The notes: a model not told the origin generated them from the sequence alone. 64,000 bases of DNA from Paludibacteraceae bacterium (GCA_024405895.1 JAKSNW010000004.1:32827-96826); one strand, 5' to 3'; numbered from the stretch's first letter, positions 6,622-48,728 are shown. Program-made: numbers and translations.

Positions 6622-6640
6622 AATATTTTTTCAGCAAGTA

Positions 6641-12371: not shown

Positions 12372-13340
12372 ATGATTCAGAAACGCTCCTACAGCATTCT
12401 CACCATTTTGAAATGGATTATTTCCATTGCTGCCTACGCGTTTCTTGCGTTCAAACTGATTACATTCAGCAACTATGCCGAACTGAAATATCAGTTTTCG
12501 AACATTTCTTCAAACACCTTCCTCTGGCTATTAGCCGCCCTATCGCTACTCCCACTTAACATTCTTGCTGAGAGTATCAAATGGGAAATGCTTATTCGCC
12601 CAATTCAAAACGTCAGTTTGAAAGAAGCCATCAAGATGGTGCTTTGGGGCAATGCTGGTGCATTTTTCACACCAAACCGCATAGGCGAATTTCCCACACG
12701 TGCCATGCTCTTACCTCAAGGAACACGCACATCTGCCGTATCTTTGGGATTTGTAGGCAGTTTGGCACAAACCATCGTCATAAGCACCTGCGGCATCATT
12801 GCACTAAACTACTTCATTCCGTTTTGCATTGAACATTATGCTGAGCAAACTCACATAGACTTGAACAGATACGTCATTCCATATATTATTGTCACCATAT
12901 TTCTTTTCGCATTATTCATTTCCATTCCGTTATGGATAAAAGTGCTAAACAAAATCAACAATCGGCATATAAAAAATATCGCTGCGGTTTGTCAGCAACT
13001 AAATCCGACACATTTATTACAGATTCTGTTTATCGCTGCCCTTCGCTATGGCATTTTCAGCCTACAGAGTTTTTGCATGTATCGTTTTTGTCTCGTCAAT
13101 TTCTCTTTCGAAACGGCATTGATTGCCATTCCTACATTTTTCCTTTTCGTAACCTTTACGCCTTCAATCAACGTTTCAGAAATGGCAGTCAGAAGCACAT
13201 ATGCGACATTCATAATTTCCTGTTTTTCAAACAACTTAATAGGTATCATACTGGCCAGTTCACTAACATGGGTCATCAACTATTGTTTGCCTATGCTGTT
13301 AGGTTCTTTATTTGTTAAATTCAACAATTCGAACAATTAG
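12372..13340 (+). CDS. polytopic membrane protein, lysyl-PG synthase TM-region (flippase-like, UPF0104) family
   Basis: Starts at MIQKRSYSILTILKW. It has multiple TM helices and a FFTPNRIGEFPTRAMLL motif resembling the LPG_synthase_TM family. Confidence 0.55.
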   Translation: MIQKRSYSILTILKWIISIAAYAFLAFKLITFSNYAELKYQFSNISSNTFLWLLAALSLLPLNILAESIKWEMLIRPIQNVSLKEAIKMVLWGNAGAFFTPNRIGEFPTRAMLLPQGTRTSAVSLGFVGSLAQTIVISTCGIIALNYFIPFCIEHYAEQTHIDLNRYVIPYIIVTIFLFALFISIPLWIKVLNKINNRHIKNIAAVCQQLNPTHLLQILFIAALRYGIFSLQSFCMYRFCLVNFSFETALIAIPTFFLFVTFTPSINVSEMAVRSTYATFIISCFSNNLIGIILASSLTWVINYCLPMLLGSLFVKFNNSNN

Positions 13341-13516
13341 GTTCTATTGCTTTTATCTTATTTTTCACTTATAACACGCCTACTAAAAAGTCCACAATTT
13401 TCACACACAATACTAACAGACAGTTAATTACAAAACGAAAACAAAAAAAACAAGTCAAAATTAGAAAAAATCAAATTTTTACCAAAAAACCACAACTAAA
13501 TATCAAATAAAAAACA

Positions 13517-13524
13517 TATCTTTG
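13517..13524 (+). promoter_or_regulatory. -7 promoter box TATCTTTG
   Basis: 31 nt upstream of the histidine kinase ATG. Confidence 0.45.
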
Positions 13525-13554
13525 CGGTGCCATAAAATTAAGAATGGTATTTAG

Positions 13555-15045: not shown

Positions 15046-15051
15046 AAGTAT

Positions 15052-15750
15052 ATGGACAAAATTAAAATCTTACTTTGCGAAGACGACAAAAACCTTGGTA
15101 GTCTTCTCCGTGAGTACCTTATTCAAAAAGGTTATGACTGTGACCTCATCGGTGATGGTGAAGCCGGTTATCAAGCATTCATTTCTACCACCTACAACAT
15201 CTGCATCTTGGATGTTATGATGCCTAAGAAAGACGGCTTTACACTCGCCCAGGATATCCGCAGAATCAACACCAACGTGCCTATCGTATTCCTTACAGCA
15301 AAAACTTTGAAGGAAGACGTTCTCGAAGGTTTCCGCATTGGCGCCGACGACTACATCCAAAAACCATTCAGCATGGAAGAACTTCTTCTCCGTATCGAAG
15401 CTATCATGCGTCGTGTTTCAGTTCGTGGCATCAAAAACGAAATCGAGTACAAAATCGGCACCTTGGTATTCAACACACAAAAACAATTGCTCATCACTCC
15501 TACTGAGCAAAAACGTTTGACAACAAAGGAGACCGAATTGCTTACTCTCTTGGTTCAGAACGTAAACAACATTCTTGAACGCAACATTGCTTTGAAAACT
15601 ATTTGGGTAGAAGACAACTATTTCAATGCACGCAGCATGGACGTTTACATCACAAAACTCCGCAAAATGCTCCGCGTTGATCCAGACATCGAAATTATCA
15701 ACATTCACGGCAAAGGCTACAAACTCGTTGACCCAACTCACAACGAATAA
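15052..15750 (+). CDS. OmpR/PhoB-type response regulator
   Basis: 232 aa with a receiver domain (ILLCEDD, ILDVMMPKKDG) and a winged-helix output domain (LTTKETELLTLL...YITKLRKML...GKGYKL). Confidence 0.9.
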   Translation: MDKIKILLCEDDKNLGSLLREYLIQKGYDCDLIGDGEAGYQAFISTTYNICILDVMMPKKDGFTLAQDIRRINTNVPIVFLTAKTLKEDVLEGFRIGADDYIQKPFSMEELLLRIEAIMRRVSVRGIKNEIEYKIGTLVFNTQKQLLITPTEQKRLTTKETELLTLLVQNVNNILERNIALKTIWVEDNYFNARSMDVYITKLRKMLRVDPDIEIINIHGKGYKLVDPTHNE

Positions 15751-15776
15751 ACAACGGGCTAATACCTAAAAAACAG

Positions 15777-15815
15777 AAAGGTGTCTTCATTTTTATGGAG
15801 ACACCTTTTCTTTTG
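15777..15815 (+). terminator. Rho-independent terminator after the response regulator gene
   Basis: Stem AAAGGTGTCT / AGACACCTTT followed by TTTTCTTTT. Confidence 0.6.
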
Positions 15816-15824
15816 AGACGGGAC

Positions 15825-15860
15825 AAAAAAAATCTGCCTCAGAAAAATCCAAGGCAGACT
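15825..15860 (-). terminator. Rho-independent terminator of the lipocalin-like gene
   Basis: Stem TCTGCCT / AGGCAGA with an 8-nt A run on plus (a T run on the minus strand). Confidence 0.55.
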
Positions 15861-15881
15861 TTATTTATTACGAACTAAATA

Positions 15882-16346
15882 TTAGTTAGTCTTTTTGAAT
15901 ACCAAGAAACGGTCGATACCGTCTTTTGAATAGTAACAGAAACGGAGACGACCACGATCGATAGTTGCTCTGTAAGTGAATTTGTCGTAGTTAGGATCCA
16001 TTACAACGAGAGTCTCGCCATCCCATTCGTAGTTGTTAGCAAAACGGCAGCCGAGGTCAACGATATCAATTGAGAACAAAGAGTCTTCAATTTGAAGTGA
16101 GTTAGCCTTGAATACGTCAGGAGTAGCACCTTGAATGCTTGATGTAAGATCTGTTACGCAAGTATCAATAACCTCTTCAGCAGCCATAGCTTGCCATGTG
16201 CCGATCAACATAGCACGTGAAGGACCTGTGGGTGTAGTATCATTACCTGGATTTACTGGTTCACCACCATTACCACATGAAGAGAATGCCATAACGGCTG
16301 CAAAAATCATTGCAATGCCGAAAAATGATGCAAAAAATTTTTTCAT
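15882..16346 (-). CDS. lipocalin-like lipoprotein
   Basis: 154 aa with lipobox (AFSSCGNG) and an LIGTWQ motif typical of lipocalin-like domains. Confidence 0.6.
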   Translation of the reverse strand: MKKFFASFFGIAMIFAAVMAFSSCGNGGEPVNPGNDTTPTGPSRAMLIGTWQAMAAEEVIDTCVTDLTSSIQGATPDVFKANSLQIEDSLFSIDIVDLGCRFANNYEWDGETLVVMDPNYDKFTYRATIDRGRLRFCYYSKDGIDRFLVFKKTN

Positions 16347-16640
16347 AGCGTTTAACTATTAAATTGTTGTTATTATTTCCTAATCCAAAAAATTCAAGCC
16401 TATGCTTGAACGCTGCAAATTTACCATTTTTTCTTTTTCATTCTGCCTTAATTACAATATTTTTTTTACTGCTAGCACTAACACATTGATTTTATTAAGA
16501 TTACAAACACCACTTACCAACTTATATACGAAATCGTTTGACCCGTTCAAAACTTTACTGTCAAACAGATTCTTCCTTTTTCAAAAAAAATCACGGTCAA
16601 TAATCCCAACGAAATACTTTGTCATAAAGTCGTGTTGCAT

Positions 16641-16648
16641 TATCTTTG
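16641..16648 (+). promoter_or_regulatory. -7 promoter box TATCTTTG
   Basis: 36 nt upstream of the DUF2156 gene ATG. Confidence 0.45.
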
Positions 16649-16683
16649 CAAAGAAATTTCATTAAACGAGAAATCGAACTAAC

Positions 16684-17598
16684 ATGCCTGATTTTTCAAC
16701 AATTACAATAGAAACAGACATTTTTATACGTCCATTTCTCCAGCAAGATTCCGGCTGGAGCGATTGTAATTGTCTATGGGCAAATCTGTGTGGATGGCAA
16801 AGGAAATATCAGTATGCTTATGCCATACTCAACAACAACACCTTGGTTATTCGCGAGACAACAGGCACTCAGTCACGATTTCTTTTTCCGCAGCAAAACA
16901 TCACACACGAATTATTTCTATCGTTTCCATCGCTAAGTCCAAATGGCATCACACTATTCAGCTGCAGCAAATCATTTGTCAACACGCTGACCCAACTGTC
17001 TGCCCTCTACCCTCAAATAAAAATAGCCTCCATCTCACACGATGGTAGTTGGGACGATTACATATATAATACATCCAACCTTAGCCAACTGACTGGCAAA
17101 CGCTACCAACCCAAACGCAACCATATCAACAAGTTCAAGACAACATTTCCAAATTTCAACATAGAGCCATTGGAAGAAAGCGATTTTGAATCTTGTTTGA
17201 TTTTGGCAGAGAACTGGATGAAAGAAGAGTTGGCCAAGCATCCAGACAGTGAAGCCCAGAATCTTAAGGACGAACTTGAATATATCAGATATTCATTGCA
17301 ACATTTTCATCGTCTTGATCTGGAAGGTCTGACCTTGAAAGTTGGCAAAGAATTGGTTGCTTTCTGCTTCGGAGCACCACTAAACAACTCCACCTTCAAC
17401 ACTTGCATAGAGAAGGCAAGTTCTCAGTTTCCAGGGAGCTACATCGTTATCAATCAAGCGATGGCTCAAAGAGTAGCCGACCGATTTATGTTTATCAATC
17501 GCGAAGAGGACCTCGGTTTGGAAGGACTTCGACATGCCAAACAATCGTATTATCCTTGTAAAATGACAGAAAAATATGAAGTCGAACTATCATATTAA
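16684..17598 (+). CDS. DUF2156 protein (homolog of the aminoacyl-phosphatidylglycerol synthase C-terminal domain)
   Basis: 304 aa. LTGKRYQPKRNHINKF and INREEDLGLEGLRHAKQSYYP match my memory of the DUF2156/LPG_synthase_C family. Confidence 0.7.
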   Translation: MPDFSTITIETDIFIRPFLQQDSGWSDCNCLWANLCGWQRKYQYAYAILNNNTLVIRETTGTQSRFLFPQQNITHELFLSFPSLSPNGITLFSCSKSFVNTLTQLSALYPQIKIASISHDGSWDDYIYNTSNLSQLTGKRYQPKRNHINKFKTTFPNFNIEPLEESDFESCLILAENWMKEELAKHPDSEAQNLKDELEYIRYSLQHFHRLDLEGLTLKVGKELVAFCFGAPLNNSTFNTCIEKASSQFPGSYIVINQAMAQRVADRFMFINREEDLGLEGLRHAKQSYYPCKMTEKYEVELSY

Positions 17599-18391
17599 GA
17601 AAGCCACTCAGGCCCACTTGCCCCAATGCATACAGCTTTGGCACGATTGTTTCGGTGACGATGATGCCTTCATCCAAGATTTTTTCTGCCAAAATCCACT
17701 CCACGGATGGTTGATTCTGGAAGACGACCTCGTTGTATCCCAACTGTTTATTTTACAAGGAAAACATCCACACGTCCCAAATCATCCAGTCTATTATATT
17801 TACGCTTGCGCCACTGCTGAGACACACCGTAAACAAGGACTTATGACCACATTGCTGCATCAGGCAGCCCAAGAAGCCTCAGAAGAAAACGCATTGGTTT
17901 TCATTCAGCCAGCAGACAGTCATTTAGCTGATTATTACAGTCGTTGCGGATTTAAGCCAATCTATCGTTACAAAACCGAAAGTACACATACATTTTCACC
18001 GTCGAACCTCAAAATCGCATCCGGTTCGTTGGAAAAGATGCTGCAGATTCGCAACAACAGCCTCAACAGCAATCGAATAATCTGGCCTTCTGAGCACTTG
18101 GAATTAGCCACCAAGATAGCAAAAGACGAAAACGGTGATATCCTGTTCTTTACCAATGGTTTTGAAACCGGCTATATTCTTTACCGTCAGGGCGAATCTC
18201 AAGCCATTTCCATAGACGAAACAGTTTATTCCCAAGGCATCAGTTTTCAGGAAGTTTTGGACTTTCTGCACCAACAAACAGGCTGCAAAGCCATTACTTT
18301 CAAACAAACAGACTCAAATGGCATGGTTGGTGCAATGGCAATGGGAGATATTTCCCAATTGGAAATTGACTGGAGTTTAGGTTTAGACTAA
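17576..18391 (+). CDS. GNAT-family acetyltransferase-like protein
   Basis: 271 aa. The N-terminus (IKKATQAHLPQCIQLWHDCFGDD) and HRKQGLMTTLL are an acetyl-CoA-binding-like motif. It overlaps the upstream gene by 23 nt. Confidence 0.6.
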   Translation: MKSNYHIKKATQAHLPQCIQLWHDCFGDDDAFIQDFFCQNPLHGWLILEDDLVVSQLFILQGKHPHVPNHPVYYIYACATAETHRKQGLMTTLLHQAAQEASEENALVFIQPADSHLADYYSRCGFKPIYRYKTESTHTFSPSNLKIASGSLEKMLQIRNNSLNSNRIIWPSEHLELATKIAKDENGDILFFTNGFETGYILYRQGESQAISIDETVYSQGISFQEVLDFLHQQTGCKAITFKQTDSNGMVGAMAMGDISQLEIDWSLGLD

Positions 18392-18667
18392 ATGCTCTGT
18401 AACATTTTGGCAACAGTCAGTTTCCACTTGTCATTGTCAAAAGCACGACAGCATTTCGAGATTAGATTATCATCTTTTCCAAAACAAAATCAAATATTTA
18501 AGTCGCGTCTGAAAATTATCCAACACCATTTCACCGCAGCCATTTTTATGGTAGAAACATCATTTTCCAAATATGTTTTCAAGACAACAAAAACAGAACT
18601 TCTCTCCCACATTTTTCAGCTGATAAAATCAGTTCAATTCTATAGCCGTTTTTTAACAGAAAACCAT

Positions 18668-18675
18668 TATCTTTG
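18668..18675 (+). promoter_or_regulatory. -7 promoter box TATCTTTG
   Basis: 28 nt upstream of the panB ATG. Confidence 0.45.
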
Positions 18676-18702
18676 CGTGATTAAATAAAATAGAACAAAA
18701 AC

Positions 18703-38427: not shown

Positions 38428-40491
38428 CTACTGATTTTTAGAAGAGACTTCACCGAAGTCCTGAAATTTGATTCGTAAAACCAAGCTAGCAACAGACTTT
38501 GGGGCTTTTTCTCGTTCTTTTTTTAACATAGCATCAAACTCGACTTCTGGCAGATCCGAGTTGAAAGCTTCTATCAAATCGTTTTCTTGCGTTGACTCAA
38601 GTGTTAGTTTCTTACGTTTCATCAACATACGCATAATATGAATACCCTTGTCATACTTAGGACGAACTTCAATAAGTTTCTGCATAAGATTGAGTCCTGG
38701 GTCCCCAATGTGCAACTCATTAAGCACTGCTACCATATAAAGGACTTTGGCATCGGGAGTTGACATTTCAAAATTTTCACCTAAAAGACAATTCACCTCA
38801 TCGGACTCATGGTAACGCTTCAACATAGCTAATGCACGAGACTTCACAAAAAGTGCCTCTGAACAATAATGTTTGCTCAGCACACGATTGGCAAAATCGA
38901 GTGCAGTCTCATACTGTCCGGCATACAGACAAAGCATAGCAGTCAAGAACTCTGTAGTCCAATGATGAGCAGAGAATAGTTCCTTCGGAACCTCTTTAAT
39001 ACAATCTATCAAATGCTCGTCACATACCACAGTATCAAGGAAACGCTTTGCCTGCTGCACTGCTTCTTTGATATCTCCTTCTTGAACTTTTTTGTTTACT
39101 AACATCAAATACTGTCTTGCAGCTTCATCGTAGTCATATTTTCTCAGAGATTCAAAGACAGCCCTACCGCTTTCTATTTCATTATTAATAAGTCGTTTAT
39201 CATTATACCCACTAGCATAAGTTATAATCTCCCTACTAGTATGAGCATATTGTGGAATAACATCATTAGACAGAAACAAACCATCTAACGAACGAACACG
39301 ACTTAAAGCCACATAGAGTTGCCCTGCAGCAAAAAGGCCACGACTTAGATCCAATGACATCTTGTCAAAAGTCATACCCTGACTTTTATGAACTGTGATA
39401 GCCCATGCCAACTTCAGGGGATATTGGGTAAAAGTTCCAGTTACCTCCTTTTTAAGTTTACGTGCTTCACGATCATACTCATAGCTTACAGATTCCCAGG
39501 ACACACTTGGCACCACATAAACATTTCCGTCGTTGATTTCAACATGTATCTCATCTTTGACAAGCTTTACAACCTTACCAAGAGTTCCATTGGCCCAACG
39601 TTTATTTGGATCGTTGCGTGTAAAAATAACCTGAGCACCGACCTTTAAACGAAGATTCAACTCTACCGGTAATTTCTTTTCATCGAACTTACCTGAAATC
39701 GTTCCCTCATAAACAAACTCCTCCAAGTCAATCTCTGCAAGATGCTGCTGGTTTATTATTTCGGCAGTCTTATTGAGAGAAGTAAGAGTAATGACCATAC
39801 CATCCTTGCTATCTGGTTGAGCCACCCGTTGATTAAGAAGCATGATATCCTCCGGGGTCACCTTATTCATGCGCACATTCTCAAGAACACGGAGAAACTT
39901 TGGATCATCGTCTTGACGATAGACTTTCCTAAATTCAATCTTTACAAGACGCATGCGTTTGAAAACATCGGCCTTATAAAAGAAAAAATCGTTAGTTTTA
40001 TAAATATCGCGAAGCAATTCGCTCTCAGCGCCTTGTCTTACTACAGGAGGTAATTGAAACATATCACCAACAAAGATCATCTGTTTTCCACCAAAAGGCT
40101 GAGAATTACGGAGTGCCTTGCGTAAAGTATAATCTATAGCATCGATGATATCACATCTCACCATCGAGACTTCATCAATGATTATGGTGTCTGCATGCAA
40201 AAGAGTAAGTATTCGTTCACGGTTCAGTCGTCCTAATGTATTTGGCACGCAAACCTCCATAGGAAGCCCAAAGAAAGAGTGAATCGTATCACCCCCAGCC
40301 AAGATGGCAGCAACTCCTGTTGGGGCCAAGGTGATGAATTGCTTGTTGACCATCTTCTGAACATTGCGCAAGAAGGTGGTCTTGCCGGTTCCCGCACGAC
40401 CCGTGAGGAAGAAACTGCTGTTGGTGTTAGCAATGAGTTCGTAAGCGAACTTTTGCATTGGGTTTTGGTTATCAATCTGCATCTGTTCCAT
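38428..40491 (-). CDS. PIF1/RecD-like SF1B DNA helicase with a C-terminal helical-repeat (TPR-like) extension
   Basis: ATG at 40491 (MEQMQIDNQ...). It has Walker A (GRAGTGKTT), Walker B (IIIDEVSMV), FVGDMFQLPPV, AITVHKSQGMTFD and LYVALSRVRS. About 240 further residues are predicted helical. Confidence 0.85.
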   Translation of the reverse strand: MEQMQIDNQNPMQKFAYELIANTNSSFFLTGRAGTGKTTFLRNVQKMVNKQFITLAPTGVAAILAGGDTIHSFFGLPMEVCVPNTLGRLNRERILTLLHADTIIIDEVSMVRCDIIDAIDYTLRKALRNSQPFGGKQMIFVGDMFQLPPVVRQGAESELLRDIYKTNDFFFYKADVFKRMRLVKIEFRKVYRQDDDPKFLRVLENVRMNKVTPEDIMLLNQRVAQPDSKDGMVITLTSLNKTAEIINQQHLAEIDLEEFVYEGTISGKFDEKKLPVELNLRLKVGAQVIFTRNDPNKRWANGTLGKVVKLVKDEIHVEINDGNVYVVPSVSWESVSYEYDREARKLKKEVTGTFTQYPLKLAWAITVHKSQGMTFDKMSLDLSRGLFAAGQLYVALSRVRSLDGLFLSNDVIPQYAHTSREIITYASGYNDKRLINNEIESGRAVFESLRKYDYDEAARQYLMLVNKKVQEGDIKEAVQQAKRFLDTVVCDEHLIDCIKEVPKELFSAHHWTTEFLTAMLCLYAGQYETALDFANRVLSKHYCSEALFVKSRALAMLKRYHESDEVNCLLGENFEMSTPDAKVLYMVAVLNELHIGDPGLNLMQKLIEVRPKYDKGIHIMRMLMKRKKLTLESTQENDLIEAFNSDLPEVEFDAMLKKEREKAPKSVASLVLRIKFQDFGEVSSKNQ

Positions 40492-40495
40492 AGTT

Positions 40496-40999
40496 TTATT
40501 GTTCAATTGCTGGAAGTATTTGAGTAAGACGAGTATTAAAGTCACTATCCAAGAAACTCTTGTAGCAGCCATTGACGATATTTTTTGCCTGTTCTTCCAG
40601 TTGCTCTTTCGGCATGGACGAGCGCTGCGTCTTCAGTATGCCCTCAAAGAAATTGCGTACCATAGTCTCCGATTCCTGGCGTATGAACGTCTCGCTGCGG
40701 AATATCTTGTCATAATCGCGTTTCTGAACAAGTTCCAGTCTGGTGCCGTTGAAGGCATAGACTTCAATGCTGTCGATGTATGTGCAGTTGTGGTAAAGTC
40801 CGACCTTCTCCACGATGACGATACGCTCGCAGAATCGCACGCCTTTATAGTAACGATGTCCGTATCCGCTTTCGTACTCGTCGCAGATGAACATCTTTTG
40901 ACCTTCGTTCCACATAGGGATGTGAGCTCTTGTGTTGCCAAATGTTGGCAAGAACTTGTCGAACAAGTCTTTGTTAATCGCTTTTGTGAGTGATGCCAT
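40496..40999 (-). CDS. hypothetical protein, paralog of the next gene upstream
   Basis: 167-aa ORF with an ATG start. Its stop is 4 nt before the helicase ATG. It shares the pattern YYK..R...R..V......G....T....I..FA.NG with the 147-aa neighbour. Confidence 0.7.
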   Translation of the reverse strand: MASLTKAINKDLFDKFLPTFGNTRAHIPMWNEGQKMFICDEYESGYGHRYYKGVRFCERIVIVEKVGLYHNCTYIDSIEVYAFNGTRLELVQKRDYDKIFRSETFIRQESETMVRNFFEGILKTQRSSMPKEQLEEQAKNIVNGCYKSFLDSDFNTRLTQILPAIEQ

Positions 41000-41056
41000 G
41001 TCTAGTCAGTTTTTTCTTGGTTAGTAACTAAGGTTGTCTGTTTTCTGTTCTACAGC

Positions 41057-41500
41057 TTATCGGAGCATCTTTTGCTGTGTCTCTTCAATCATGGCTCTTG
41101 AGAAGTCGAGCAATTGACTGTCAGCAATGACGCTTCCCATGGCCTTTGCCTGACCTGCGAGAAAGTCCTTGAGCATGATGATGCTTTGCTCCTTCGCGAA
41201 TTGCTCAGAGAAGCATCGCCAGTTGCTGCCACCCCAGAACTTTTGGGAGATGATGTTTGCCTTCTGACCGTTCCAAGCGAAGAGCGTGATACCGTTCAAG
41301 AAGGTGTGAACGTAACCTTCGCCGAGGTGGTAGTATACGGCCAATCGGTCGGAGAGACGGATTGCCTTGTAGTAGGTGTTGCCAGCTGCGCTGGTGTAAC
41401 CAAGAGTGAGAAACACGTTCTTCTCTGGGTTGTAGGTGATAGAACTGCCCGAGAGGGCTGGGAGTGCCTTAGCGGCTACGAGTGCGAGTGATGTATTCAT
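41057..41500 (-). CDS. hypothetical protein, paralog of the 167-aa gene
   Basis: 147-aa ORF with an ATG start. The core (GNTYYKAIRLSDRLAVYYHLGEGYVHTFLNGITLFAWNGQ) aligns by eye with GHRYYKGVRFCERIVIVEKVGLYHNCTYIDSIEVYAFNGT. Confidence 0.7.
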   Translation of the reverse strand: MNTSLALVAAKALPALSGSSITYNPEKNVFLTLGYTSAAGNTYYKAIRLSDRLAVYYHLGEGYVHTFLNGITLFAWNGQKANIISQKFWGGSNWRCFSEQFAKEQSIIMLKDFLAGQAKAMGSVIADSQLLDFSRAMIEETQQKMLR

Positions 41501-41607
41501 CTGCGTGTCGTTTTTGGGTTTGTTTGTTTAGCGGAATAGGCCGCCACCTCTGTTTTGAAAAAATTAAATATTGTATAAACAAATCCAGCTCTCTCGGAAT
41601 TGCGGTG

Positions 41608-41680
41608 CAAAATTACAGTGTATTTCTCCGCCGACCTAAGAATTTCCAAAGAGTATTGGTTCTTGTATATTTGGAACCAA
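41608..41680 (-). promoter_or_regulatory. promoter P3: -7 box TAATTTTG plus the upstream inverted repeat TTGGTTC-N11-GAACCAA
   Basis: The -7 box is at 41608..41615 (CAAAATTA on plus). Half-sites are at 41656..41662 and 41674..41680, within a perfect 10-bp inverted repeat GTATTGGTTC/GAACCAATAC. The near half-site starts 41 nt from the box. Confidence 0.6.
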
Positions 41681-41698
41681 TACCTTGTTCTTGGAGCA

Positions 41699-42115
41699 TT
41701 ACGCAGCGAACCGTTTCTTGCGGATCGTTTCCATGCAACGTCTTGTGCCGACAATGGAAAAACGAATTGCGGTCAGGTCCTCTGTACGACCATTTTTCTT
41801 ATGGTTTGCTTGTGCCTGGCGTTTCTCGACAATGCGTCTTAGAATGCGGTTTTGGACTTTGGTAGATTGTGATTGAGATTTGCTGTTGAGATTCAGGAAA
41901 ATCCCGTCCAGCACTTCCGTTTCAATCTTTTTGGTTGTGACATCACACACCTCTTTCGCTGATGCAGAGCGATATCTCCTGGTTTTCTCGATTCTTTCCC
42001 AATTTTGGTTGGTTTTGTGACAGGCGTTTGCTGCGCTCTGTTTCTTCTTTGCGTTGTCTACTTTTTGGTTCATTGTCTTCATTGTGTCTTTGTTTGCGTT
42101 TGACTTTTGTTTCAT
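41699..42115 (-). CDS. small, very basic hypothetical protein
   Basis: 138 aa from the ATG at 42115 (MKQKSNANKDTMKTMNQK...). It is K/R/N/Q-rich and has its own promoter P2 upstream. Coding status is uncertain. Confidence 0.4.
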   Translation of the reverse strand: MKQKSNANKDTMKTMNQKVDNAKKKQSAANACHKTNQNWERIEKTRRYRSASAKEVCDVTTKKIETEVLDGIFLNLNSKSQSQSTKVQNRILRRIVEKRQAQANHKKNGRTEDLTAIRFSIVGTRRCMETIRKKRFAA

Positions 42116-42187
42116 AGTGTCTTGATTTATTGTCCCCCACAAAAAAATGCAGCGCCAACTCCGAGGTGGTGCCGAAGTTTGACGCTG

Positions 42188-42260
42188 CAAAAGTAGTACG
42201 TTTATTGCTAATAGAACAATGTATTTGCAACTATAATGGTACCTGTAAAATTGGAACCAT
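42188..42260 (-). promoter_or_regulatory. promoter P2: -7 box TACTTTTG plus the upstream inverted repeat ATGGTAC-N11-GAACCAT
   Basis: The -7 box is at 42188..42195. Half-sites are at 42236..42242 and 42254..42260, with the same 41-nt offset. The 18-nt block TTTGACGCTGCAAAAGTA is identical to P1. Confidence 0.6.
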
Positions 42261-42274
42261 TTAAATACAGTGAA

Positions 42275-43315
42275 TTATCTAAATAATTGTGAGAATTTAA
42301 TCTTATCTTTTATTTCCCAATTTGAAGTGTTGCCATTCACATTCGAATGTTTATTGTTGTATTCTTGATACCATAGAATAACATCGCATAATTGAAGCGC
42401 ATAGCTCTTTAGCAAATATGATGTGTTACCTACATTCTTTAAATATTCTTGAAGGTGCTTGTTCTCATCATCATCATTGGACGAAGTATGAACATCAGAA
42501 CCTGCAGTATGGATCATATGAATCATGTTATCTTGTATAATCTTTGGGAAGACCGTATGATTGACTTCAACAACAGTCGTTTTGTTTTCATCTCGTCCAT
42601 ATGTAACTGGATAACCACTTAGAATAAGATTAGAACATTTTAAGTTTATTTTTTTTTGCCGCGGAAGAAGTCCTTTTTCTATCATGGATCTGAAAATATA
42701 CTCTACGATTTGACGTACTTTTTTGTATTTATCGTTATAATCTTTATTATCAAGTTCAGGAAAATGTATTTCGGATAACAAGTCAGTAAGATAAATATCA
42801 GCATCTGTGTCAATACCTAGATTTGTTATTGCTTCAAATACAGTTTTGTACATTTCATGTATCTTCAAGTCTGCTGAGCGTGATTGACGAGTTGTATACC
42901 TAATACGACGGAATAGAAGATCTCTGTCTGTATTCTTGTCATAAAATGTTTTTTCCCAATCACCATCCCATACATTTCTTGTCTCAGGAATAAGTTCTTT
43001 GATGTCGGTCTCTGCCTGACCCGATAATACATACCACGGAATAAAACGCTGCCCATGGCAGATATTGGTGATAGCGTTCGTCGCATTAATCAGAAAGCGA
43101 GTCGCATTGTCCACACTGTCTTTATGATGCTTGCATTTTGCATCAAGTATAATGGCAGACCAGCGATTGTGGTCACGTTTAAGAGCAGCTTCTGCGTCAT
43201 CCCAACAGTCAAATGCGACTAATTCAAGACCATATTTTGCTGCTTCCATTGGGAATGTTAATCTAACTTCAGGATCATCTTCAACCCATAAAACTTGTAT
43301 GTATTCTATATTCAT
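42275..43315 (-). CDS. response-regulator receiver domain fused to an unrecognised C-terminal domain
   Basis: 346 aa. The N-terminus is CheY-like (IQVLWVEDDPEVR...WSAIILDAKC...WYVLSGQ). Residues from about 140 to 346 are helical with no family I can name. Confidence 0.8.
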   Translation of the reverse strand: MNIEYIQVLWVEDDPEVRLTFPMEAAKYGLELVAFDCWDDAEAALKRDHNRWSAIILDAKCKHHKDSVDNATRFLINATNAITNICHGQRFIPWYVLSGQAETDIKELIPETRNVWDGDWEKTFYDKNTDRDLLFRRIRYTTRQSRSADLKIHEMYKTVFEAITNLGIDTDADIYLTDLLSEIHFPELDNKDYNDKYKKVRQIVEYIFRSMIEKGLLPRQKKINLKCSNLILSGYPVTYGRDENKTTVVEVNHTVFPKIIQDNMIHMIHTAGSDVHTSSNDDDENKHLQEYLKNVGNTSYLLKSYALQLCDVILWYQEYNNKHSNVNGNTSNWEIKDKIKFSQLFR

Positions 43316-43335
43316 TTTATAATATTATAAGTGTT

Positions 43336-43363
43336 AAGGCCAGAGGAAATATCCTCCGGCCTT
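43336..43363 (-). other. intercistronic hairpin between the kinase and receiver genes
   Basis: 12-bp stem AAGGCCAGAGGA / TCCTCCGGCCTT with one mismatch and a 4-nt loop. There is no good U tract on the minus strand. Confidence 0.5.
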
Positions 43364-43376
43364 TATTTTCAAAATG

Positions 43377-45932
43377 TCAAAGTGATAACACAGTATTTGT
43401 ACGTTTGAATGTTAGTACATATTTTACTGTGTAGTCCTCGTTTGGTGACGATATGATTTTCACATCTCCATCATATTCCTTCATTATAGAAACAATCTCA
43501 GAGCAACCAATGCCATTATGACCATTGATGTTGAGTGAAGTGCTGAATCCATACTCCAAAATGTTTGATGTGTCAACCCCATCTGGTATGGATTTTCCGT
43601 TGTTTTCTATGGTAAGTACCATGTCCATACCTGTTGCTTCCCAAGAGAACTTAACCTTGTAATCCTTATTTAGAGGGTTATTAAATCCATGAGCGACAGC
43701 ATTTGCAATGATGTTGTCAAAGATTCGAGTAAGAGCTCTTTTGGGGAAATAAAAAGTGTTGATAGGTTCACCTTTTCTCAAAACAAATCCACTTTTATGA
43801 AAGTCTATTGGAGAACGATTTGTAATAAAATTCTCCCAACCTGTAAGAGCGGAAAATCCCAACCAACCAGCCTTGTTTGATTGAATATATGAGTTTATGA
43901 ACTCTATAGGTTCTATGTATTCTGGTTTACCGAAATCCTCTTCTACATCGGATATCGCAGCCAGTTTAACTTGTATGCTCTTCAACCGACTTTCTAGGTA
44001 AGCAAATGCATCAGCAACAGTTAGGTCATTTATCTCAGATAGTCTGTCGCTATCATCAAGGAAACCACTTTGTCTTCTTCGGCAATTCATCAATGCATTA
44101 AACATAGACCCAAAGGAAGAAAGAGATTGTGTAAGAGCATGTTTCCTCAGTCTCACAGACTTTCGGTAATTTTCATATTGGATCACCCCTTCTTGTTTCT
44201 GTTGCTCTATGGTTTCGTAGAGTTTTTTTTGCATTCGTTCGTGTTGTTGAAGTGTGGCTTGCTTAAACACCTCCAAACTGAATTTGAATGTGTCACTCGG
44301 TGCATTAAGAATCTCGCCTGAAGACTGGGACCCTGAACGAGGAACTGCAGCTTCAACTTGTTGTTGCAGGATTGCCTCAAACTCAAGTTTCCAATTAATG
44401 TCCTCGTGATAGAGAGGAATAACTTTAATTTTGCCAAGAAGGTTGTTGTCAAACTTTCTCATGAGTTTTCCAACACTCATTGCTATAATTTGTTTAACAA
44501 CATAGTCTTCTAATAGAAGCAAGGTCGCTGATGCAACATTAGTACTTACAACTTTAAAGCAACAAATACGTGAAGAAACAGCTACACCGGTCAGGGGGAC
44601 TTCAGATAAATAACCCACCAAAAGTTTTTCACCATTGGAACACATGAAAACGCAAGGTGTTGTAACAACTGCAAAATCTTCCTTTTTTCCGCTATCGTAT
44701 ACGGGTGATAGGTCTGCAACAGAAATGTTTGCATACTTAAACGAAGTCGTTAGGTTTTTAATGGTTACAGCAGGCATAGCATCTTTTGTAGCATGAGTGT
44801 TTAGATCTGCAATAGCCAATACATTGTTCAAGCCTATAGCAAATTTAGGTTTTTCCAACAGGTAGTGCGCTGGTAAAAGTATGTCTGCATCAACCTTGTT
44901 GTAAGGTATTCTCTTGCAAATGTCCGCATTTCCCTTTATCTCAGTATGCAGAATTGCCTCCGTAAATCTTTCAACGTCAAAACGTTTGAGGTTGGATTTT
45001 ACGCCATAGGCACGAGTTGCAAACGTTGCATCAGCCATAACAACCCCAGCGAACTCGGATTCAGTCTTATTTTTGTCAAGACACATGACAAAAAATGAGC
45101 CGTTAGATGTACTGAAAATGTCAGAAGGTAACTGTACAATTGCCTCAAGAGACTTGTCTCTTACAATCATCTTTCTGAAATCTTGCTCAATTTCTCCCAT
45201 GGCTCCTAAAGTGTGCGGTGATACAATGGCAATCATTCTGCCAGTGGGTCTCAAAGCAGCATATAGGTTATGAAGTGATGAATCAAATACATCACAATGA
45301 CTAAGAATACAGTCAACAGATTCAAATGATGGGTGTGGCATCTGTAAAGATTCCGGACTCTTAGGGTATGCTATGTCATAGTCTATACCATTTGCTTGAA
45401 GTCGAATGTTACAAAAAGCCCAAATCCTAGGAGAAGAGACATTACCAGAAATTTTGCATTGCGGAAATCTTAAAGCAAGATCACCATATTCAACATAAGG
45501 AATATAAAGTTTCTCTTCTTCTTCATAATGCAATAATTTAGTCATTAAATCGCATAACTCATTAGAATATTCAAAGAGTGAAATGTCAAGCCACCGCCAT
45601 TCATCACGAAGCGAGAAAATGTGGTTGATGGTTTCTTTATGATGAGAAACAAGATATTCCAATTCTTGTTCTGTGAGTATGTTTTTCTTGAAGGAATCTA
45701 TGAAATAAATCAACTCATTAAAAAGAAGTCCTTCCTTTGGTTCTCCGTTCACAACAGACCATAGTTTGGCAAGAAGTTGTTGGTGTGGAGCATCAACAAA
45801 ACCTAAGGGTAGGTCTACTTCTGGAATCGGCGAATTCAAATCCTTGTACTCTGGTGAGGCCTCCAATTGAGCATTTACTGCGCTTACATACTTGGCTACG
45901 ATAGCCTCTACTGAAAAGTAGTTGTTTTGCAT
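43377..45932 (-). CDS. cytoplasmic histidine kinase fused to an HsdM-like (degenerate) N6-methyltransferase and a TRD-like module
   Basis: First ATG at 45932 (MQNNYF...); the track start at 45953 is a TTG. MTase-like segments: LRPTGRMIAIVSPHTLG, LEAIVQLPSDIF..FFVMCLDKNK and VVMADATFATRAYGVKSNLKRFDVERF. A TRD-like region follows, then RLRKHALTQSL (candidate phospho-His) and GHKL boxes (NIIANAVAHG, ENNGKSIP, GHNGIGCSEI). Confidence 0.8.
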   Translation of the reverse strand: MQNNYFSVEAIVAKYVSAVNAQLEASPEYKDLNSPIPEVDLPLGFVDAPHQQLLAKLWSVVNGEPKEGLLFNELIYFIDSFKKNILTEQELEYLVSHHKETINHIFSLRDEWRWLDISLFEYSNELCDLMTKLLHYEEEEKLYIPYVEYGDLALRFPQCKISGNVSSPRIWAFCNIRLQANGIDYDIAYPKSPESLQMPHPSFESVDCILSHCDVFDSSLHNLYAALRPTGRMIAIVSPHTLGAMGEIEQDFRKMIVRDKSLEAIVQLPSDIFSTSNGSFFVMCLDKNKTESEFAGVVMADATFATRAYGVKSNLKRFDVERFTEAILHTEIKGNADICKRIPYNKVDADILLPAHYLLEKPKFAIGLNNVLAIADLNTHATKDAMPAVTIKNLTTSFKYANISVADLSPVYDSGKKEDFAVVTTPCVFMCSNGEKLLVGYLSEVPLTGVAVSSRICCFKVVSTNVASATLLLLEDYVVKQIIAMSVGKLMRKFDNNLLGKIKVIPLYHEDINWKLEFEAILQQQVEAAVPRSGSQSSGEILNAPSDTFKFSLEVFKQATLQQHERMQKKLYETIEQQKQEGVIQYENYRKSVRLRKHALTQSLSSFGSMFNALMNCRRRQSGFLDDSDRLSEINDLTVADAFAYLESRLKSIQVKLAAISDVEEDFGKPEYIEPIEFINSYIQSNKAGWLGFSALTGWENFITNRSPIDFHKSGFVLRKGEPINTFYFPKRALTRIFDNIIANAVAHGFNNPLNKDYKVKFSWEATGMDMVLTIENNGKSIPDGVDTSNILEYGFSTSLNINGHNGIGCSEIVSIMKEYDGDVKIISSPNEDYTVKYVLTFKRTNTVLSL

Positions 45933-45964
45933 AGAAAAATGTTTTTGTTTCAATTTTGACGCTG

Positions 45965-46036
45965 CAAAAGTACTTTATTTTTACAGTGCTTGTAACCAAA
46001 ATTATCGATATATTGGTTCCTATATATTGGGAACCA
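45965..46036 (-). promoter_or_regulatory. promoter P1: -7 box TACTTTTG plus the upstream inverted repeat TTGGTTC-N11-GAACCA(T)
   Basis: The -7 box is at 45965..45972. Half-sites are at 46013..46019 and 46031..46037 (the last base is a mismatch). The offset from the box is 41 nt. Confidence 0.6.
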
Positions 46037-46041
46037 TTCCT

Positions 46042-47127
46042 TTAGTTTGTTTTAGGATATAAATCAGCTAATTCATGTATACGTTGCGCCATTTTGTGGC
46101 GAATGGTATCTGGTGAAATAATCTCTAATCCTGCTCCCATCTGTATTATATGCCCATAGAATTCGTTGTTCGGCTCGACATCAACCGAGAACTCTGCATA
46201 CTCTCCATCGTCATACAAGCCAAAAGGTTTCACAACATTATAACTCTGATGAAGTGGCTTTGTGTCCATTAGTTTAAATATATATAATGTTCGAGCGCGA
46301 ATAATAATATGTTCTTTCTGGACATCCTTCATGTGGCTTACGCCAACAATATCCTTGAAGAACTCATCATAGAAATGCTTTGGTGCTGGTACATATTTTA
46401 CTTTTGATCTCTCACGAGGTTTTGATTGTATTCTATCAAGAGCTATGTTATAGCCATATACCGGTTTCTTTCCTTCAGCATGACCAAACAGATGCCATCT
46501 GCCGTTATATTCCTTCAGATAGTGCGGGTGAAACAATAGCATAACAGATTCCTCCTCAAAAGGCTTATAGTTTATCTGTAGTACCTTTTTATTAGTAATC
46601 GCTTCATATATGAAAGGCAGAAATTCTATGTTTGTCAAAATACGGTCAAGACTAGCATTGATTACCAACTCTCCTTTCTGTCGCCGAGCCTTTATGTCCA
46701 ACAAATCCTGACAATCCATGAAGAAGTATTCCAACCAAGATTTTGGGAAGAAACCAGCAGAATCCTGACAGAACTTCCAATACTGTCGAAGGTTATTGAT
46801 AGCCTTAGCGTTGCGCATGTCAGCGAGAGGATCATTGTCTTTGCCTATATAACGGAAGCATTTGTTTCGGTTGTTGCCTTCCTCTTCAAAGCAATCGTTG
46901 CCTACCTTCTCGCAAATGGCTTTCTTCAATATGCCAACAGTCTTCTTAAGTTCACCATATCCTTCACAGTTAGATAGGTTGGATGGTAGTTCATTTACAG
47001 AACAACCTAATCTGTCGGCCATAATATTAGCATAAGTAAACCACCGGCGACTTATTAACCACCGATAGGTTATTCTTGAAAATTCGGCTTTATAACTGTC
47101 GCCGTCAAAGAGGTTACTACGTTGCAT
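46042..47127 (-). CDS. WYL domain-containing putative transcriptional regulator (paralog B)
   Basis: 361 aa. VLQINYKPFEEESVMLLFHPHYLKEYNGRWHLFGH...YNIALDRIQSKPR fits the WYL-domain signature, and a C-terminal WCX-like region follows. Confidence 0.8.
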   Translation of the reverse strand: MQRSNLFDGDSYKAEFSRITYRWLISRRWFTYANIMADRLGCSVNELPSNLSNCEGYGELKKTVGILKKAICEKVGNDCFEEEGNNRNKCFRYIGKDNDPLADMRNAKAINNLRQYWKFCQDSAGFFPKSWLEYFFMDCQDLLDIKARRQKGELVINASLDRILTNIEFLPFIYEAITNKKVLQINYKPFEEESVMLLFHPHYLKEYNGRWHLFGHAEGKKPVYGYNIALDRIQSKPRERSKVKYVPAPKHFYDEFFKDIVGVSHMKDVQKEHIIIRARTLYIFKLMDTKPLHQSYNVVKPFGLYDDGEYAEFSVDVEPNNEFYGHIIQMGAGLEIISPDTIRHKMAQRIHELADLYPKTN

Positions 47128-47282
47128 TTTATTAATATTCTTAGTGAGGTGTTTTTATATTTTTCTTGTATCGATGTTAGAATCTTGTTCGTTGTAGGAT
47201 TCTTCCCTTATTGGCAGGAAAACCAGACGCCAGTTTTACCATTCCCCATTAATGCTCCTTTGATTCTATTTAGATTTTCCAT
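47128..47282 (-). pseudogene. possible decayed XRE-type HTH ORF with an in-frame TAA
   Basis: Minus-strand translation from the ATG at 47282 gives MENLNRIKGALMGNGKTGVWFSCQ*GKNPTTNKILTS... . It resembles the Bacteroidota XRE N-terminus NRIK..L.E.GKT.KWLAEQLGK.P.TVSKW. The stop at 47208..47210 sits where Leu is expected. Confidence 0.3.
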
Positions 47283-47304
47283 TTTAATAAATTAATGTTG
47301 AGTG

Positions 47305-47312
47305 CAAAGATA
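47305..47312 (-). promoter_or_regulatory. -7 promoter box (TATCTTTG on the minus strand)
   Basis: CAAAGATA on plus, upstream of the XRE-like remnant and WYL gene B. Confidence 0.35.
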
Positions 47313-47361
47313 CTAAATAATATTGTAACTACAGAACGCAAATGCTATAACGTTTCTTCGA

Positions 47362-47574
47362 TTAATTCTTGTGGTGATGTGTGTTAGAGTTCTTCAAAGT
47401 TTTCTGAGATTCCTTCGTCGATAAACTCTTCGAAACGATTTCCTTTGCATCGGAAGCAGATACCATTATCAATGTGTCAATATTCTTGGAAATATCCAGT
47501 TCCACCACATCTACTACATGGTGTCAAGTGCACTATTTGAAATTCGTCTCTCTCTAATTGTTGAGTGTAGGACA
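47362..47574 (-). pseudogene. small CxxC-CxxC zinc-ribbon-like ORF interrupted by an in-frame TGA
   Basis: My translation gives MSYTQQLERDEFQIVHLTPCSRCGGTGYFQEY*HIDNGICFRCKGNRFEEFIDEGISETLKNSNTHHHKN*. The TGA is at 47476..47478. The second Cys pair lies after the stop in the same frame. Confidence 0.45.
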
Positions 47575-47642
47575 TACCATTACAAGTTAATGATACCATT
47601 ATATAGCATTGATTTTAAGACACTTTATTTCCATTCCTGATA

Positions 47643-48728
47643 TCATTTCGTGGATTTTTTTTGATAATGTTGGTGCATTCTTGCTACTTTCGTTGCTATA
47701 GTTTGACGCAGGATATCGGGCGACACGACTTCGTAGGCTTCTCCCATCTGCAACAAGCGGCCAACGAACTCCTGGTTCGGACGAACGTGCAACTTGATTT
47801 CGCCATAGCACCGACCATCGTGCTCGCCGAAGTCAACAACAGTCTCCTGAGAGTGGTGAATACGTTTGGTTGTAGTGAGATTGAACATGTACGAACTGTG
47901 AATGCGCACAACAACGTCTTCCGGCTTGCTATTCGGGGCGATGCTCACACCATAGATATCGTTAAAGAATTTCTTGTAGTAATCGGGCGAGGCCGAGACA
48001 TATTTCTTGCCATGACAATATCTCGGTTTTCCCTGGATGCGGTCGATGGCTATATTAAAGCCTTCATGAGGGGCATCAGTAACATCTTCTTCTACATAGC
48101 CGAAGAGAAACCATCGGAGGTTAAACTCTTTCAGATACTGAGGATGAAACGTCAGCGTAAGAATCTCTTCGTATTTAGCATTGTACCTGATGGTAAGCAC
48201 CTGACGGTTGACGATGGCTTCGTGCAGGAAGGGGAGCAGTTCTATGTTGGTAAGGCTGTGGTTGAGACTGCTGCTAATGGCCTCCTTTCCCTTTTCCTTT
48301 CGGTGTCTTATCTCAAGCAATTCTTTGTCGTCCTGAAAATAGTGTTCTACCCAAGAAAAAGGAAAAAATCCGGCTGAGTCGACACAGAACTGAACGAAGC
48401 GTTTGAGGTCTTCTCGCGACTTTTGCTCACGAAGAGACCTAAGCGGATCGTCTGTCGGCCCCACATATCTATACGTTTTGTTTTTGTTGTTGCCTTTTTT
48501 CTCTATGGCATTTTCACCTAATTGTTCGACCAGCCATGAAAAGGCTTTCTTGCATTCGCCATAACCGTCTCGGTTGCTAATGGGTACCAGCTCGTCACCA
48601 TCCCAATCGGGATCTTGGCGGAAGATATCAGCATAGGAGAACTCTCTACCCGACATCAGCAAATTGTAGATGATGGCGGTATATTTCGATTTTTGGCCTT
48701 TTCCTAAAAAGCAATTACTCTCTGACAT
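47643..48728 (-). CDS. WYL domain-containing putative transcriptional regulator (paralog A)
   Basis: 361 aa and collinear with paralog B over the full length (VLTIRYNAKYEEILTLTFHPQYLKEFNLRWFLFGY...FNIAIDRIQGKPR). Confidence 0.8.
   Translation of the reverse strand: MSESNCFLGKGQKSKYTAIIYNLLMSGREFSYADIFRQDPDWDGDELVPISNRDGYGECKKAFSWLVEQLGENAIEKKGNNKNKTYRYVGPTDDPLRSLREQKSREDLKRFVQFCVDSAGFFPFSWVEHYFQDDKELLEIRHRKEKGKEAISSSLNHSLTNIELLPFLHEAIVNRQVLTIRYNAKYEEILTLTFHPQYLKEFNLRWFLFGYVEEDVTDAPHEGFNIAIDRIQGKPRYCHGKKYVSASPDYYKKFFNDIYGVSIAPNSKPEDVVVRIHSSYMFNLTTTKRIHHSQETVVDFGEHDGRCYGEIKLHVRPNQEFVGRLLQMGEAYEVVSPDILRQTIATKVARMHQHYQKKSTK

Follow-up and report, generated by a model that had tools for sequence, protein, structure and literature searches.

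What is an apparent DNA methylase doing in a cell when its catalytic motifs are gone and its C-terminus resembles a sensor kinase? The question is raised by a minus-strand open reading frame (ORF; 43377-45932) in a 64,000-nucleotide stretch of DNA from a Paludibacteraceae bacterium (GCA_024405895.1, JAKSNW010000004.1:32827-96826), which we call the window and whose positions we count from its first letter. The ORF starts with ATG, and its translation is identical to an 851-residue NCBI protein (P0001) of a Paludibacteraceae metagenome-assembled genome (MAG), where it is named 'N-6 DNA methylase'. An alternative upstream TTG start (45953) would add seven codons; the NCBI protein uses the 851-residue form. 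From the N-terminus, the protein consists of a helical domain, a gamma-class Rossmann fold, a target-recognition domain (TRD), a linker, a hairpin resembling the dimerization and histidine phosphotransfer (DHp) domain, and an HATPase_c domain. Its AlphaFold2 model has a mean predicted local distance difference test score (pLDDT) of 81.5, which exceeds 90 across most of residues 130-260. We consider it likely that this is a soluble sensor histidine kinase, driving a receiver phosphorelay, whose input module is an exapted HsdM-plus-TRD unit of the type I or type IIG restriction kind that has lost its S-adenosylmethionine (SAM)-binding and catalytic elements.

The first half of the protein has the class I Rossmann-like methyltransferase fold preceded by a helical N-domain of the HsdM type, as found with both Foldseek and hhalign. 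In the PDB, Foldseek matched HsdM subunits best (3lkd, E 3e-13; PacII M1/M2; 3khk; 2okc; 7vru), and the next were the single-chain enzymes BpuSI, CamA, M.BseCI and M.TaqI, which join a methyltransferase to a TRD. A profile built from 30 family sequences aligned with EcoKI HsdM over 176 columns (hhalign probability 95%, E 2.7e-8). The sequence families caught only part of this. Pfam N6_Mtase matched residues 225-348 (E 3.5e-10, 40.1 bits for a cut-off of 20.4) through positions 171-291 of its 311, the segment that follows motif IV, which is where the sequence-only reading of this DNA had described well-preserved structural motifs. The NCBIfam hsdM model (TIGR00497) scored 23.3 bits for a cut-off of 242.75, and the PADLOC matches were restricted to partial type I and type IIG methyltransferase models (MTase_I, REase_MTase_IIG).

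That reading had also placed motif I and motif IV at LYIPYVEYGDLA and SVDCILSHCDVF, the two ends of the interval 45285-45509, and had taken both as degenerate unless the motifs had been mis-registered. We checked the register with profile alignments, with the strands of the model and with the Foldseek matches above, and it stands. In the alignment with EcoKI HsdM, IPYVEYG lies beneath DPAAGTA at motif I. At motif IV, SHCDV lies under TNPPF (ILshCDV-- for IVATNPPFG), with D214 beneath the Asn and PPF absent. The genuine HsdM encoded at a related locus (L004) gives an identical register at motifs II and IV, its alignment beginning past motif I; HMMER alignments place motif I of PDB chain 7vru and motif II of 3khk in that register too. 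In class I methyltransferases, the loops of motifs I, II and IV come after strands beta1, beta2 and beta4; the strands of the model at residues 141-146, 160-164 and 206-212 end right before the loops assigned to these motifs.

Four elements are missing together, and their loss is fixed across the clade: motif X, the glycine loop of motif I, the acid of motif II and motif IV. The (D/E/N)PxxGxG loop is not preserved at motif I, where Glu and Tyr occupy the positions of the G-x-G glycines, and a motif scan found neither (N/D/S/T)PP(Y/F/W) nor xPxxGxG anywhere in the 851 residues. The degeneracy claimed from the sequence was thus confirmed for motifs I and IV, and it extends to motif X and to the motif II acid. 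The cofactor pocket, which we assessed from the alignments and the placement of secondary structure, did not simply decay. Twenty close homologues carry the substituted motifs unchanged, and in nine homologues with 60-73% identity Y143, I144, P145, E148, Y149, G150, D151, L152, A153, C213 and D214 are invariant, which indicates that the former pocket is still under constraint. Having failed the four sequence-defining features of active N6-adenine methyltransferases, the protein should not be filed among them. Judged from alignments and model, the module has kept an HsdM-like fold and is very probably a catalytically dead pseudo-methyltransferase.

No active partner is visible in the window. 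Pfam identified no DNA methyltransferase, HsdR or HsdS among 47 window ORFs, the unscanned ones being all shorter than 220 residues, and the sole methyltransferase among those scanned was the rRNA dimethylase KsgA (10833-11615). Neither (N/D/S/T)PP(Y/F/W) nor the C5 motif PCQxFS occurs in any stop-to-stop ORF of at least 100 residues in the window. The absence of restriction partners and of a partner methylase, noticed in the sequence-only reading, is borne out by both searches.

The Rossmann fold is followed by a domain that aligns with the TRD part of a protein matching both Pfam N6_Mtase and Methylase_S (P0290; hhalign probability 98.5%, columns 96-515). The Foldseek alignments to CamA and M.BseCI run over 585-632 columns, and Pfam Methylase_S had no direct match to the TRD. 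The linker behind it (residues 511-560) expands by tandem peptide repeats in the homologues P0002 and P0013, for example EAQAREEELQDAAFEASL, such that the length of the coiled coil differs among strains.

The C-terminal part of the protein is a predicted histidine kinase. In the model, a long helical hairpin (helices 546-620 and 639-661) carries the H-box VRLRKHALTQSLSS, and its H598, in the motif RKHALTQ, is the putative phospho-acceptor. This histidine is invariant among 30 diverse sequences with 20-72% identity, as are N744, N777-G779 and G807/G809. The HATPase_c domain that closes the protein has the N (NIIANAVAHG), G1 (ENNGKSIP) and G2 (GHNGIGC) boxes of sensor kinases, and Pfam found it in all 16 family members scanned. 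When a profile of the last 290 residues was searched against the PDB, sensor kinases came first (9m08, WalK/YycG, VicK, HK853).

Directly downstream of the kinase gene, on its strand, is a gene for a 346-residue protein with 574 homologues, all unannotated, and with no match in Pfam, PADLOC, NCBIfam or PHROGs. Its sequence begins VLWVEDDP...AIILDAKC, and its AlphaFold2 model and Foldseek matches reveal a CheY-like (beta-alpha)5 fold. The first 140 residues or so have template modelling scores of 0.70-0.75 to isolated receivers of PhoB, ArlR, BfmR and DctD, and match PorX with an E-value of 2e-5. The residue pattern of receivers is also there: the acidic pair E12/D14, the phospho-acceptor D58 (codon 43142-43144), S/T98 followed by G99, and K127 stand at the canonical positions and vary little or not at all among 35 homologues. 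Foldseek matches in the PDB and BFVD run through the receiver half only. The remaining, helical domain (residues 141-346, 42275-42895) is modelled with a pLDDT mostly above 88 and has invariant R201, E205, H276 and D311, of which H276 borders the sole low-confidence loop. A profile search of the PDB with this output domain returned just a weak match to a talin helical bundle, probably spurious.

The kinase and this receiver protein belong together. When one genome was scanned per species, 27 loci came out, almost all of them in MAGs of Prevotella, Prevotellaceae, Muribaculaceae and other Bacteroidales. In every one of them the kinase gene is immediately followed by the receiver gene, and the two often overlap by 4 nt. 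The search used an alignment of seven sequences and a strict H-box pattern, and the set is thus biased towards degenerate clades; all 27 kinases are degenerate in their motifs. A gene for a regulator with WYL and WCX domains precedes the kinase in 23 loci, the other four ending at contig ends, and a PIF1 helicase gene follows on the same strand in 24. Within 8 kb of these kinases there is no HsdR, HsdS or active HsdM, nor any ORF of at least 200 residues bearing (N/D)PP(F/Y/W). The order WYL, kinase, receiver protein was likewise found in all seven metagenomic contexts that we examined, three of which have PIF1. Across cassettes, identity to the copy in the window is 26-29% for the kinase, 45-58% for the receiver protein and 44-71% for the helicase. 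Given the adjacent receiver and the invariant H598 and D58, that the dead module feeds a working pair of kinase and receiver seems to us quite likely from sequence and model.

The cassette occupies an island (38428-48728) with a GC content of 0.40 (0.35 in the receiver gene and 0.38 in the kinase gene) between flanks of 0.44-0.48, which is consistent with horizontal acquisition. The flanks are ordinary chromosomal genes, among them those for Lon, ClpB, MetRS, an aminotransferase, a GH25-like hydrolase and a DUF4270 protein. The features of the cassette are listed below.

Table. Features of the pseudo-methyltransferase kinase gene and of its neighbours, in window coordinates
Feature	Position	Strand	Basis
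Pseudo-methyltransferase/TRD/histidine-kinase fusion gene (predicted), 851 aa	43377..45932	-	ORF and translation; Pfam N6_Mtase (partial) and HATPase_c
N-terminal helical domain, aa 1-110, equivalent of the HsdM helical N-domain	45603..45932	-	AlphaFold2 helices 8-107; Foldseek alignments of 435-476 columns to HsdM chains
Catalytically degenerate class I methyltransferase fold, gamma-type N6-adenine, aa 111-350	44883..45602	-	hhalign, Pfam, Foldseek
Motif X position: SLFEYSNE instead of GQYFTPRP	45558..45581	-	hhalign to EcoKI HsdM
Motif I position: LYIPYVEYGDLA, aa 142-153, instead of VQDPAAGTAGFL; SAM glycine loop lost	45474..45509	-	Alignments
Motif II position: ISGNV instead of IGLEL/VYGQE; ribose-binding acid lost (E to V)	45438..45452	-	Alignments
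Motif IV position: SVDCILSHCDVF, aa 205-216, instead of xxIVATNPPFG	45285..45320	-	Alignments
HsdS-like TRD, aa 351-510	44403..44882	-	hhalign to P0290; Foldseek CamA, M.BseCI
Variable E/Q/A-rich linker, aa 511-560	44253..44402	-	27% identity in the close clade; repeat expansions in homologues
DHp-like helical hairpin, aa 561-665, H-box VRLRKHALTQSLSS, H598 codon 44139-44141	43938..44252	-	AlphaFold2 helices; invariant H598
HATPase_c catalytic domain, aa 730-851	43380..43745	-	Pfam E 3.3e-8
Partner protein, 346 aa: divergent receiver (aa 1-140; D13/D14, D58, S98, K127) and helical output domain (aa 141-346)	42275..43315	-	AlphaFold2 pLDDT 85; Foldseek
WYL/WCX-domain regulator, proximal copy	46042..47127	-	Pfam WYL 7.9e-7, WCX 1.1e-6; PADLOC WYL 1.2e-18
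WYL/WCX-domain regulator, distal paralogue	47643..48728	-	Pfam, PADLOC
Conserved small ORF, 147 aa, between partner gene and helicase gene	41057..41500	-	77% identical to its L005 counterpart
Conserved small ORF, 167 aa, distant paralogue of the 147-aa ORF	40496..40999	-	65% identical to its L005 counterpart
PIF1-family SF1B helicase, longest ORF	38428..40572	-	Pfam PIF1 9.8e-33
Hairpin, 13-bp stem, directly past the helicase stop codon	38380..38409	-	Sequence

Some of these neighbours deserve comment. The WYL/WCX regulator gene lies immediately upstream of the kinase gene and on its strand, as in defence loci controlled by WYL regulators of the BrxR/CapW type. The window has two such genes in tandem, 43% identical and separated by 515 bp; related cassettes have one. 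ORFs of the 147-residue type were found in 6 of the 27 genome loci. The two small ORFs share 24% identity with each other and match no family, and both resemble their counterparts at the L005 locus much more closely than do the kinases of the two loci, which are just 26% identical. The longest ORF of the helicase overlaps the upstream 167-residue ORF by 77 nt. Its likely start is M28, at 40491, giving a product of 687 residues, in line with homologues of 682-686, of which about 260 C-terminal residues past the helicase core are unannotated. The hairpin behind the helicase gene is the probable end of the transcription unit. A scan for sigma-70 promoters gave nothing above shuffled sequence, and Bacteroidetes promoters differ from that consensus anyway.

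How did a restriction methylase come to lose its motifs? The family is large. A word-indexed homologue search, even with a diverse profile, returned the close clade only, and it took an exhaustive search of representatives of clusters defined at 50% identity to reveal the rest: 1227 representatives passed E<=1e-3 and 201 passed E<=1e-30, mostly with lengths of 770-830 residues. Members come chiefly from Prevotella and other Bacteroidales that live in the human gut or the rumen. Motif IV is eroded to different degrees among 122 full-length members, 82 of which lack xPPx while 40 have it, with Asn as the first residue in 5, Thr in 12 and Phe in 9. Where xPPF is present, NPFxGxG and the Gly-x-Glu of motif II are usually retained as well. 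In this series, which starts with NPPF and TPPF, the clade of the window marks the extreme of full degeneracy.

The neighbours change along the same series. At L004, a relative with TPPF (5634-7979) is followed by genes for HsdM, HsdS, an ApeA-HEPN protein and HsdR (9118 onward). At L041, a relative with CPPF (8926-11298) is followed (12664-18698) by an HsdM with DPAMGSA and NPPF, an HsdS and an ORF of 1120 residues; the order is WYL, kinase, receiver and then the type I restriction-modification (R-M) operon, in a record that is unannotated. HsdR, HsdS or HsdM partners are present only beside these xPPF-type relatives. The position of the TPPF and CPPF relatives directly upstream of complete type I R-M operons, together with the degenerate relatives being followed by PIF1, suggests that the family arose within type I R-M loci, and the gradient from R-M-embedded NPPF/TPPF members to degenerate, PIF1-paired ones supports an origin in a restriction system. 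The L041 locus was also the single match in a phage collection (MT835483.1, an 82-kb human faecal scaffold labelled 'UNVERIFIED Bacteriophage sp.'). We did not take it as a case of phage carriage, since the scaffold is unverified and may not be of a phage. A search of a plasmid collection found no relative on a plasmid.

We propose the following mechanism. The pseudo-methyltransferase and its TRD would bind a macromolecular cue, most likely DNA with foreign features or a phage protein directed against restriction methylases. The long coiled-coil and DHp helix would pass the signal to the kinase, leading to autophosphorylation on H598, and we infer that the phosphoryl group would then move to D58 of the receiver protein encoded downstream. 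The novel helical domain of the latter may act with, or upon, the co-conserved PIF1 helicase, and the WYL/WCX regulators may control the expression of the cassette, as in BREX and CBASS. The sequence-only reading had proposed a sensor role for the module, with DNA sequence, modification state or SAM as the ligand. The sensor role gained strong support from its context, namely the fusion to a histidine-bearing helix and an HATPase_c domain and the receiver gene adjoining the kinase gene at all 27 loci. SAM as the ligand did not fare as well, because its binding site has been replaced.

What this circuit would be for is harder to say. The cassette is a conserved signalling system in gut Bacteroidales, and its cue is probably foreign DNA or a phage protein. 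A role in defence is suggested by the WYL regulators, the fast evolution of the sensor, the low GC content and the company the cassette keeps. Defence genes adjoin it, or are inserted in it, in four of the seven metagenomic contexts: the neighbours encode OLD-TOPRIM, TIR and DndB proteins at L005, a type I R-M system with ApeA-HEPN at L004 and an Mrr_N protein at L003, and in one lineage (L010/L011, 3921-5535) an AbiEii toxin-antitoxin module, with DUF6088, is found between the WYL gene and the kinase gene. The chances that the cassette is a defence system are, in our view, close to balanced, if slightly on the low side. The fuller proposal, that it is an unnamed two-component system against phages or other mobile genetic elements, with a restriction-methylase pseudoenzyme as its sensor and common in Prevotella and other Bacteroidales of gut and rumen, we put forward tentatively. 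In its sharpest version, the dead look-alike of HsdM and HsdS may be a decoy bound by anti-restriction proteins of phages, DNA mimics of the Ocr/ArdA type, or by unmodified or hypermodified phage DNA, and this binding would turn the phosphorelay on.

Several results weigh against these interpretations. In the region of the hairpin, Pfam found no family of the HisKA type, either in the 851-residue protein or in the family members scanned. None of 35 members of the partner family matched the Pfam receiver families (Response_reg, Response_reg_2) at E<=1. Hhalign found no alignment between the partner and a canonical receiver, that of the OmpR-type regulator which, with an ordinary HisKA/HATPase_c kinase, forms a pair unrelated to the cassette elsewhere in the window (13555-15750, plus strand) and served as our comparator. 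Because these sequence families were not matched, the DHp assignment relies on the model and the invariant histidine, and that of the receiver on predicted fold and residue pattern. The output domain has no relatives in the PDB, BFVD, Pfam, PADLOC, NCBIfam or PHROGs. The G1 box (ENNGKS, residues 776-783, 43584-43607, minus strand) has Asn777 in place of Asp throughout the family, and GHKL ATPases normally carry an adenine-contacting Asp there. We rejected the deduction that the ATPase is inactive, since a histidine kinase of solved structure, 9m08, has the same Asn. As to defence, no PADLOC model matches the system, the cassette sits among housekeeping genes (such as Lon and ClpB) with no other defence gene in the window, and the constancy of the helicase would fit a genome-maintenance circuit. 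An HsdS-like hypervariable TRD had to be abandoned: in the close clade the TRD is 66% identical, compared with 58% for the methyltransferase fold, which does not resemble strain-specific DNA specificity.

Among the rivals, one fares best. The cassette might be a housekeeping circuit for DNA damage or replication stress, in which a WYL protein, like the single-stranded-DNA-sensing DriD or PafBC, and the two-component pair control or assist PIF1 as a genome-maintenance helicase. Helicase genes are the most constant and best conserved neighbours of the kinase, the genes flanking the island are of the housekeeping kind, and some WYL regulators are reported to respond to DNA damage. Yet, a circuit of this sort is difficult to reconcile with the low GC of the island, with a patchy distribution over some 200 divergent clusters, or with the rapid divergence of the sensor. 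It also leaves aside the defence genes beside or within the cassette in most of the metagenomic contexts and the two relatives embedded in type I R-M operons. We consider it unlikely.

A different possibility accepts the signalling circuit and changes its ligand. The module could sense SAM, S-adenosylhomocysteine or a related nucleoside, for instance the depletion caused by a phage SAM lyase, instead of DNA or a protein. Selection acts on the former pocket, whose residues are invariant in the clade, and the relatives with xPPF and GxG look competent to bind a ligand. In the clade of the window, however, Glu and Tyr stand in for the glycines of the loop and a Val for the acid that contacts the hydroxyls of the ribose, which makes SAM the least likely of the three ligands proposed from the sequence; sensing of SAM by this clade is unlikely. 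Besides, a complete and conserved TRD would be needless in a sensor of small molecules. The idea as a whole is improbable.

Improbable to a similar degree is that the C-terminal GHKL domain works as an ATPase clamp of the MORC or paraMORC kind, closing on DNA bound by the TRD, so that the protein would be a restriction-like motor and not a signalling protein. GHKL ATPases do occur in R-M contexts (PMC8011034), and the Asn of the G1 box and the lack of a HisKA match speak for one. Nevertheless, by sequence the domain is closest to sensor kinases and RsbW, and MORC3 and topoisomerase II score just E ~0.3-0.7 in the profile search of the PDB. The invariant histidine on a predicted long hairpin, and a partner of receiver fold with an invariant Asp that is always adjacent, speak against such a clamp. 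The S5-fold transducer is missing too, as the protein ends at the ATPase.

It is very improbable that the protein is a still-active DNA methyltransferase whose unorthodox or permuted motifs escaped the alignments. Its NCBI name says so, D214 lies beneath the position of the catalytic Asn/Asp, and a few distant members of the family keep NPPF together with NPFxGxG. In the protein itself no such motifs are found at any position, three independent alignments and the strand order of the model concur on the register, and the stacking platform formed by PPF is missing at the same time as motif X, the glycine loop and the motif II acid. Finally, a functionless, decaying remnant of a type I or type IIG system, which the loss of all catalytic motifs and the lack of R-M partners in the window might evoke, is hardly credible for an intact ORF of 851 codons with a confident model, 20 close homologues in which the substituted motifs are invariant and hundreds of clusters with conserved synteny; conservation in homologues and family size led us to reject pseudogene status.

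The reading of the cassette as a kinase-receiver pair fed by a dead methylase can be set against known systems. The protein shares with HsdM/HsdS and with BpuSI, CamA and M.TaqI the fold, the order of helical N-domain, gamma-class Rossmann fold and TRD, and the N6_Mtase segment after motif IV. It differs from them in having lost motifs X, I, II and IV, in lacking HsdR and HsdS, and in its C-terminal kinase. With BREX it shares the concept of a methyltransferase with a TRD used for recognition in defence: a preprint describes the PglX/BrxX methyltransferase as doubling as a sensor of foreign DNA (bioRxiv 10.1101/2024.04.12.589305), and BREX loci are reported to be WYL-regulated. However, PglX is active and requires SAM, while the module of the window is dead and wired to a proposed phosphorelay, with no PglZ, BrxC or BrxL.

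Other defence systems resemble the second half of the cassette. Detocs is an anti-phage system with a soluble sensor kinase and a receiver-effector, and it depends on their phosphorylatable His and Asp; it is made of the TPR-based sensor DtcA, the buffer receiver DtcB and DtcC, whose PNP effector is an ATP nucleosidase (bioRxiv 10.1101/2023.01.24.525353). The arrangement of soluble kinase and receiver-effector is alike, but the cassette has no TPR sensor, PNP effector or third receiver gene and does not qualify as Detocs. Ambrosia, a defence system of Pseudomonas (AbrR, AbrA, AbrB, AbrC, AbrD), combines in one cluster a regulator, an N6-adenine methylase, an HATPase sensor kinase and a receiver (bioRxiv 10.1101/2025.09.30.679545), a combination that the cassette echoes. 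In Ambrosia the methylase is separate and its catalytic domain is required, the receiver has a winged helix-turn-helix, an XRE protein serves as regulator and an HNH nuclease as effector (bioRxiv 10.1101/2025.09.30.679545); in the cassette the methylase-like part is dead and fused to the kinase, the output domain is helical and novel, the regulator is a WYL protein and the constant neighbour is PIF1, which sets it outside that system. Lastly, HEF_HK (PF19191) and Response_reg_2 (PF19192) form soluble, divergent kinase-like and receiver-like pairs linked to R-M, with an HATPase_c_3 domain (paraMORC-like) and no methyltransferase fold (PMC8011034). The likeness is that of a divergent soluble kinase/receiver gene pair, and neither Pfam family matched the proteins of the cassette.

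We found no description, in the searchable full-text literature, of a dead restriction methylase as the input of a histidine kinase, or of this cassette, and a two-component system with a restriction-methylase pseudoenzyme as its sensor is apparently undescribed there. One practical consequence is that the label 'N-6 DNA methylase' in public records would mislead methylome studies and censuses of R-M systems. The defence systems of gut and rumen Bacteroidales are poorly charted, and the cassette brings two uncharacterised pieces, the helical output domain of the receiver and the linked PIF1 helicase. Pseudoenzymes repurposed as receptors are a recurrent theme in immunity. Should the cassette be a defence system, it would be the third architecture of phosphorelay immunity after Detocs and Ambrosia and would show how R-M components evolve into sensors, and the gradient of motif loss within the family would be the trace of a restriction methylase turned, step by step, into an immune receptor.

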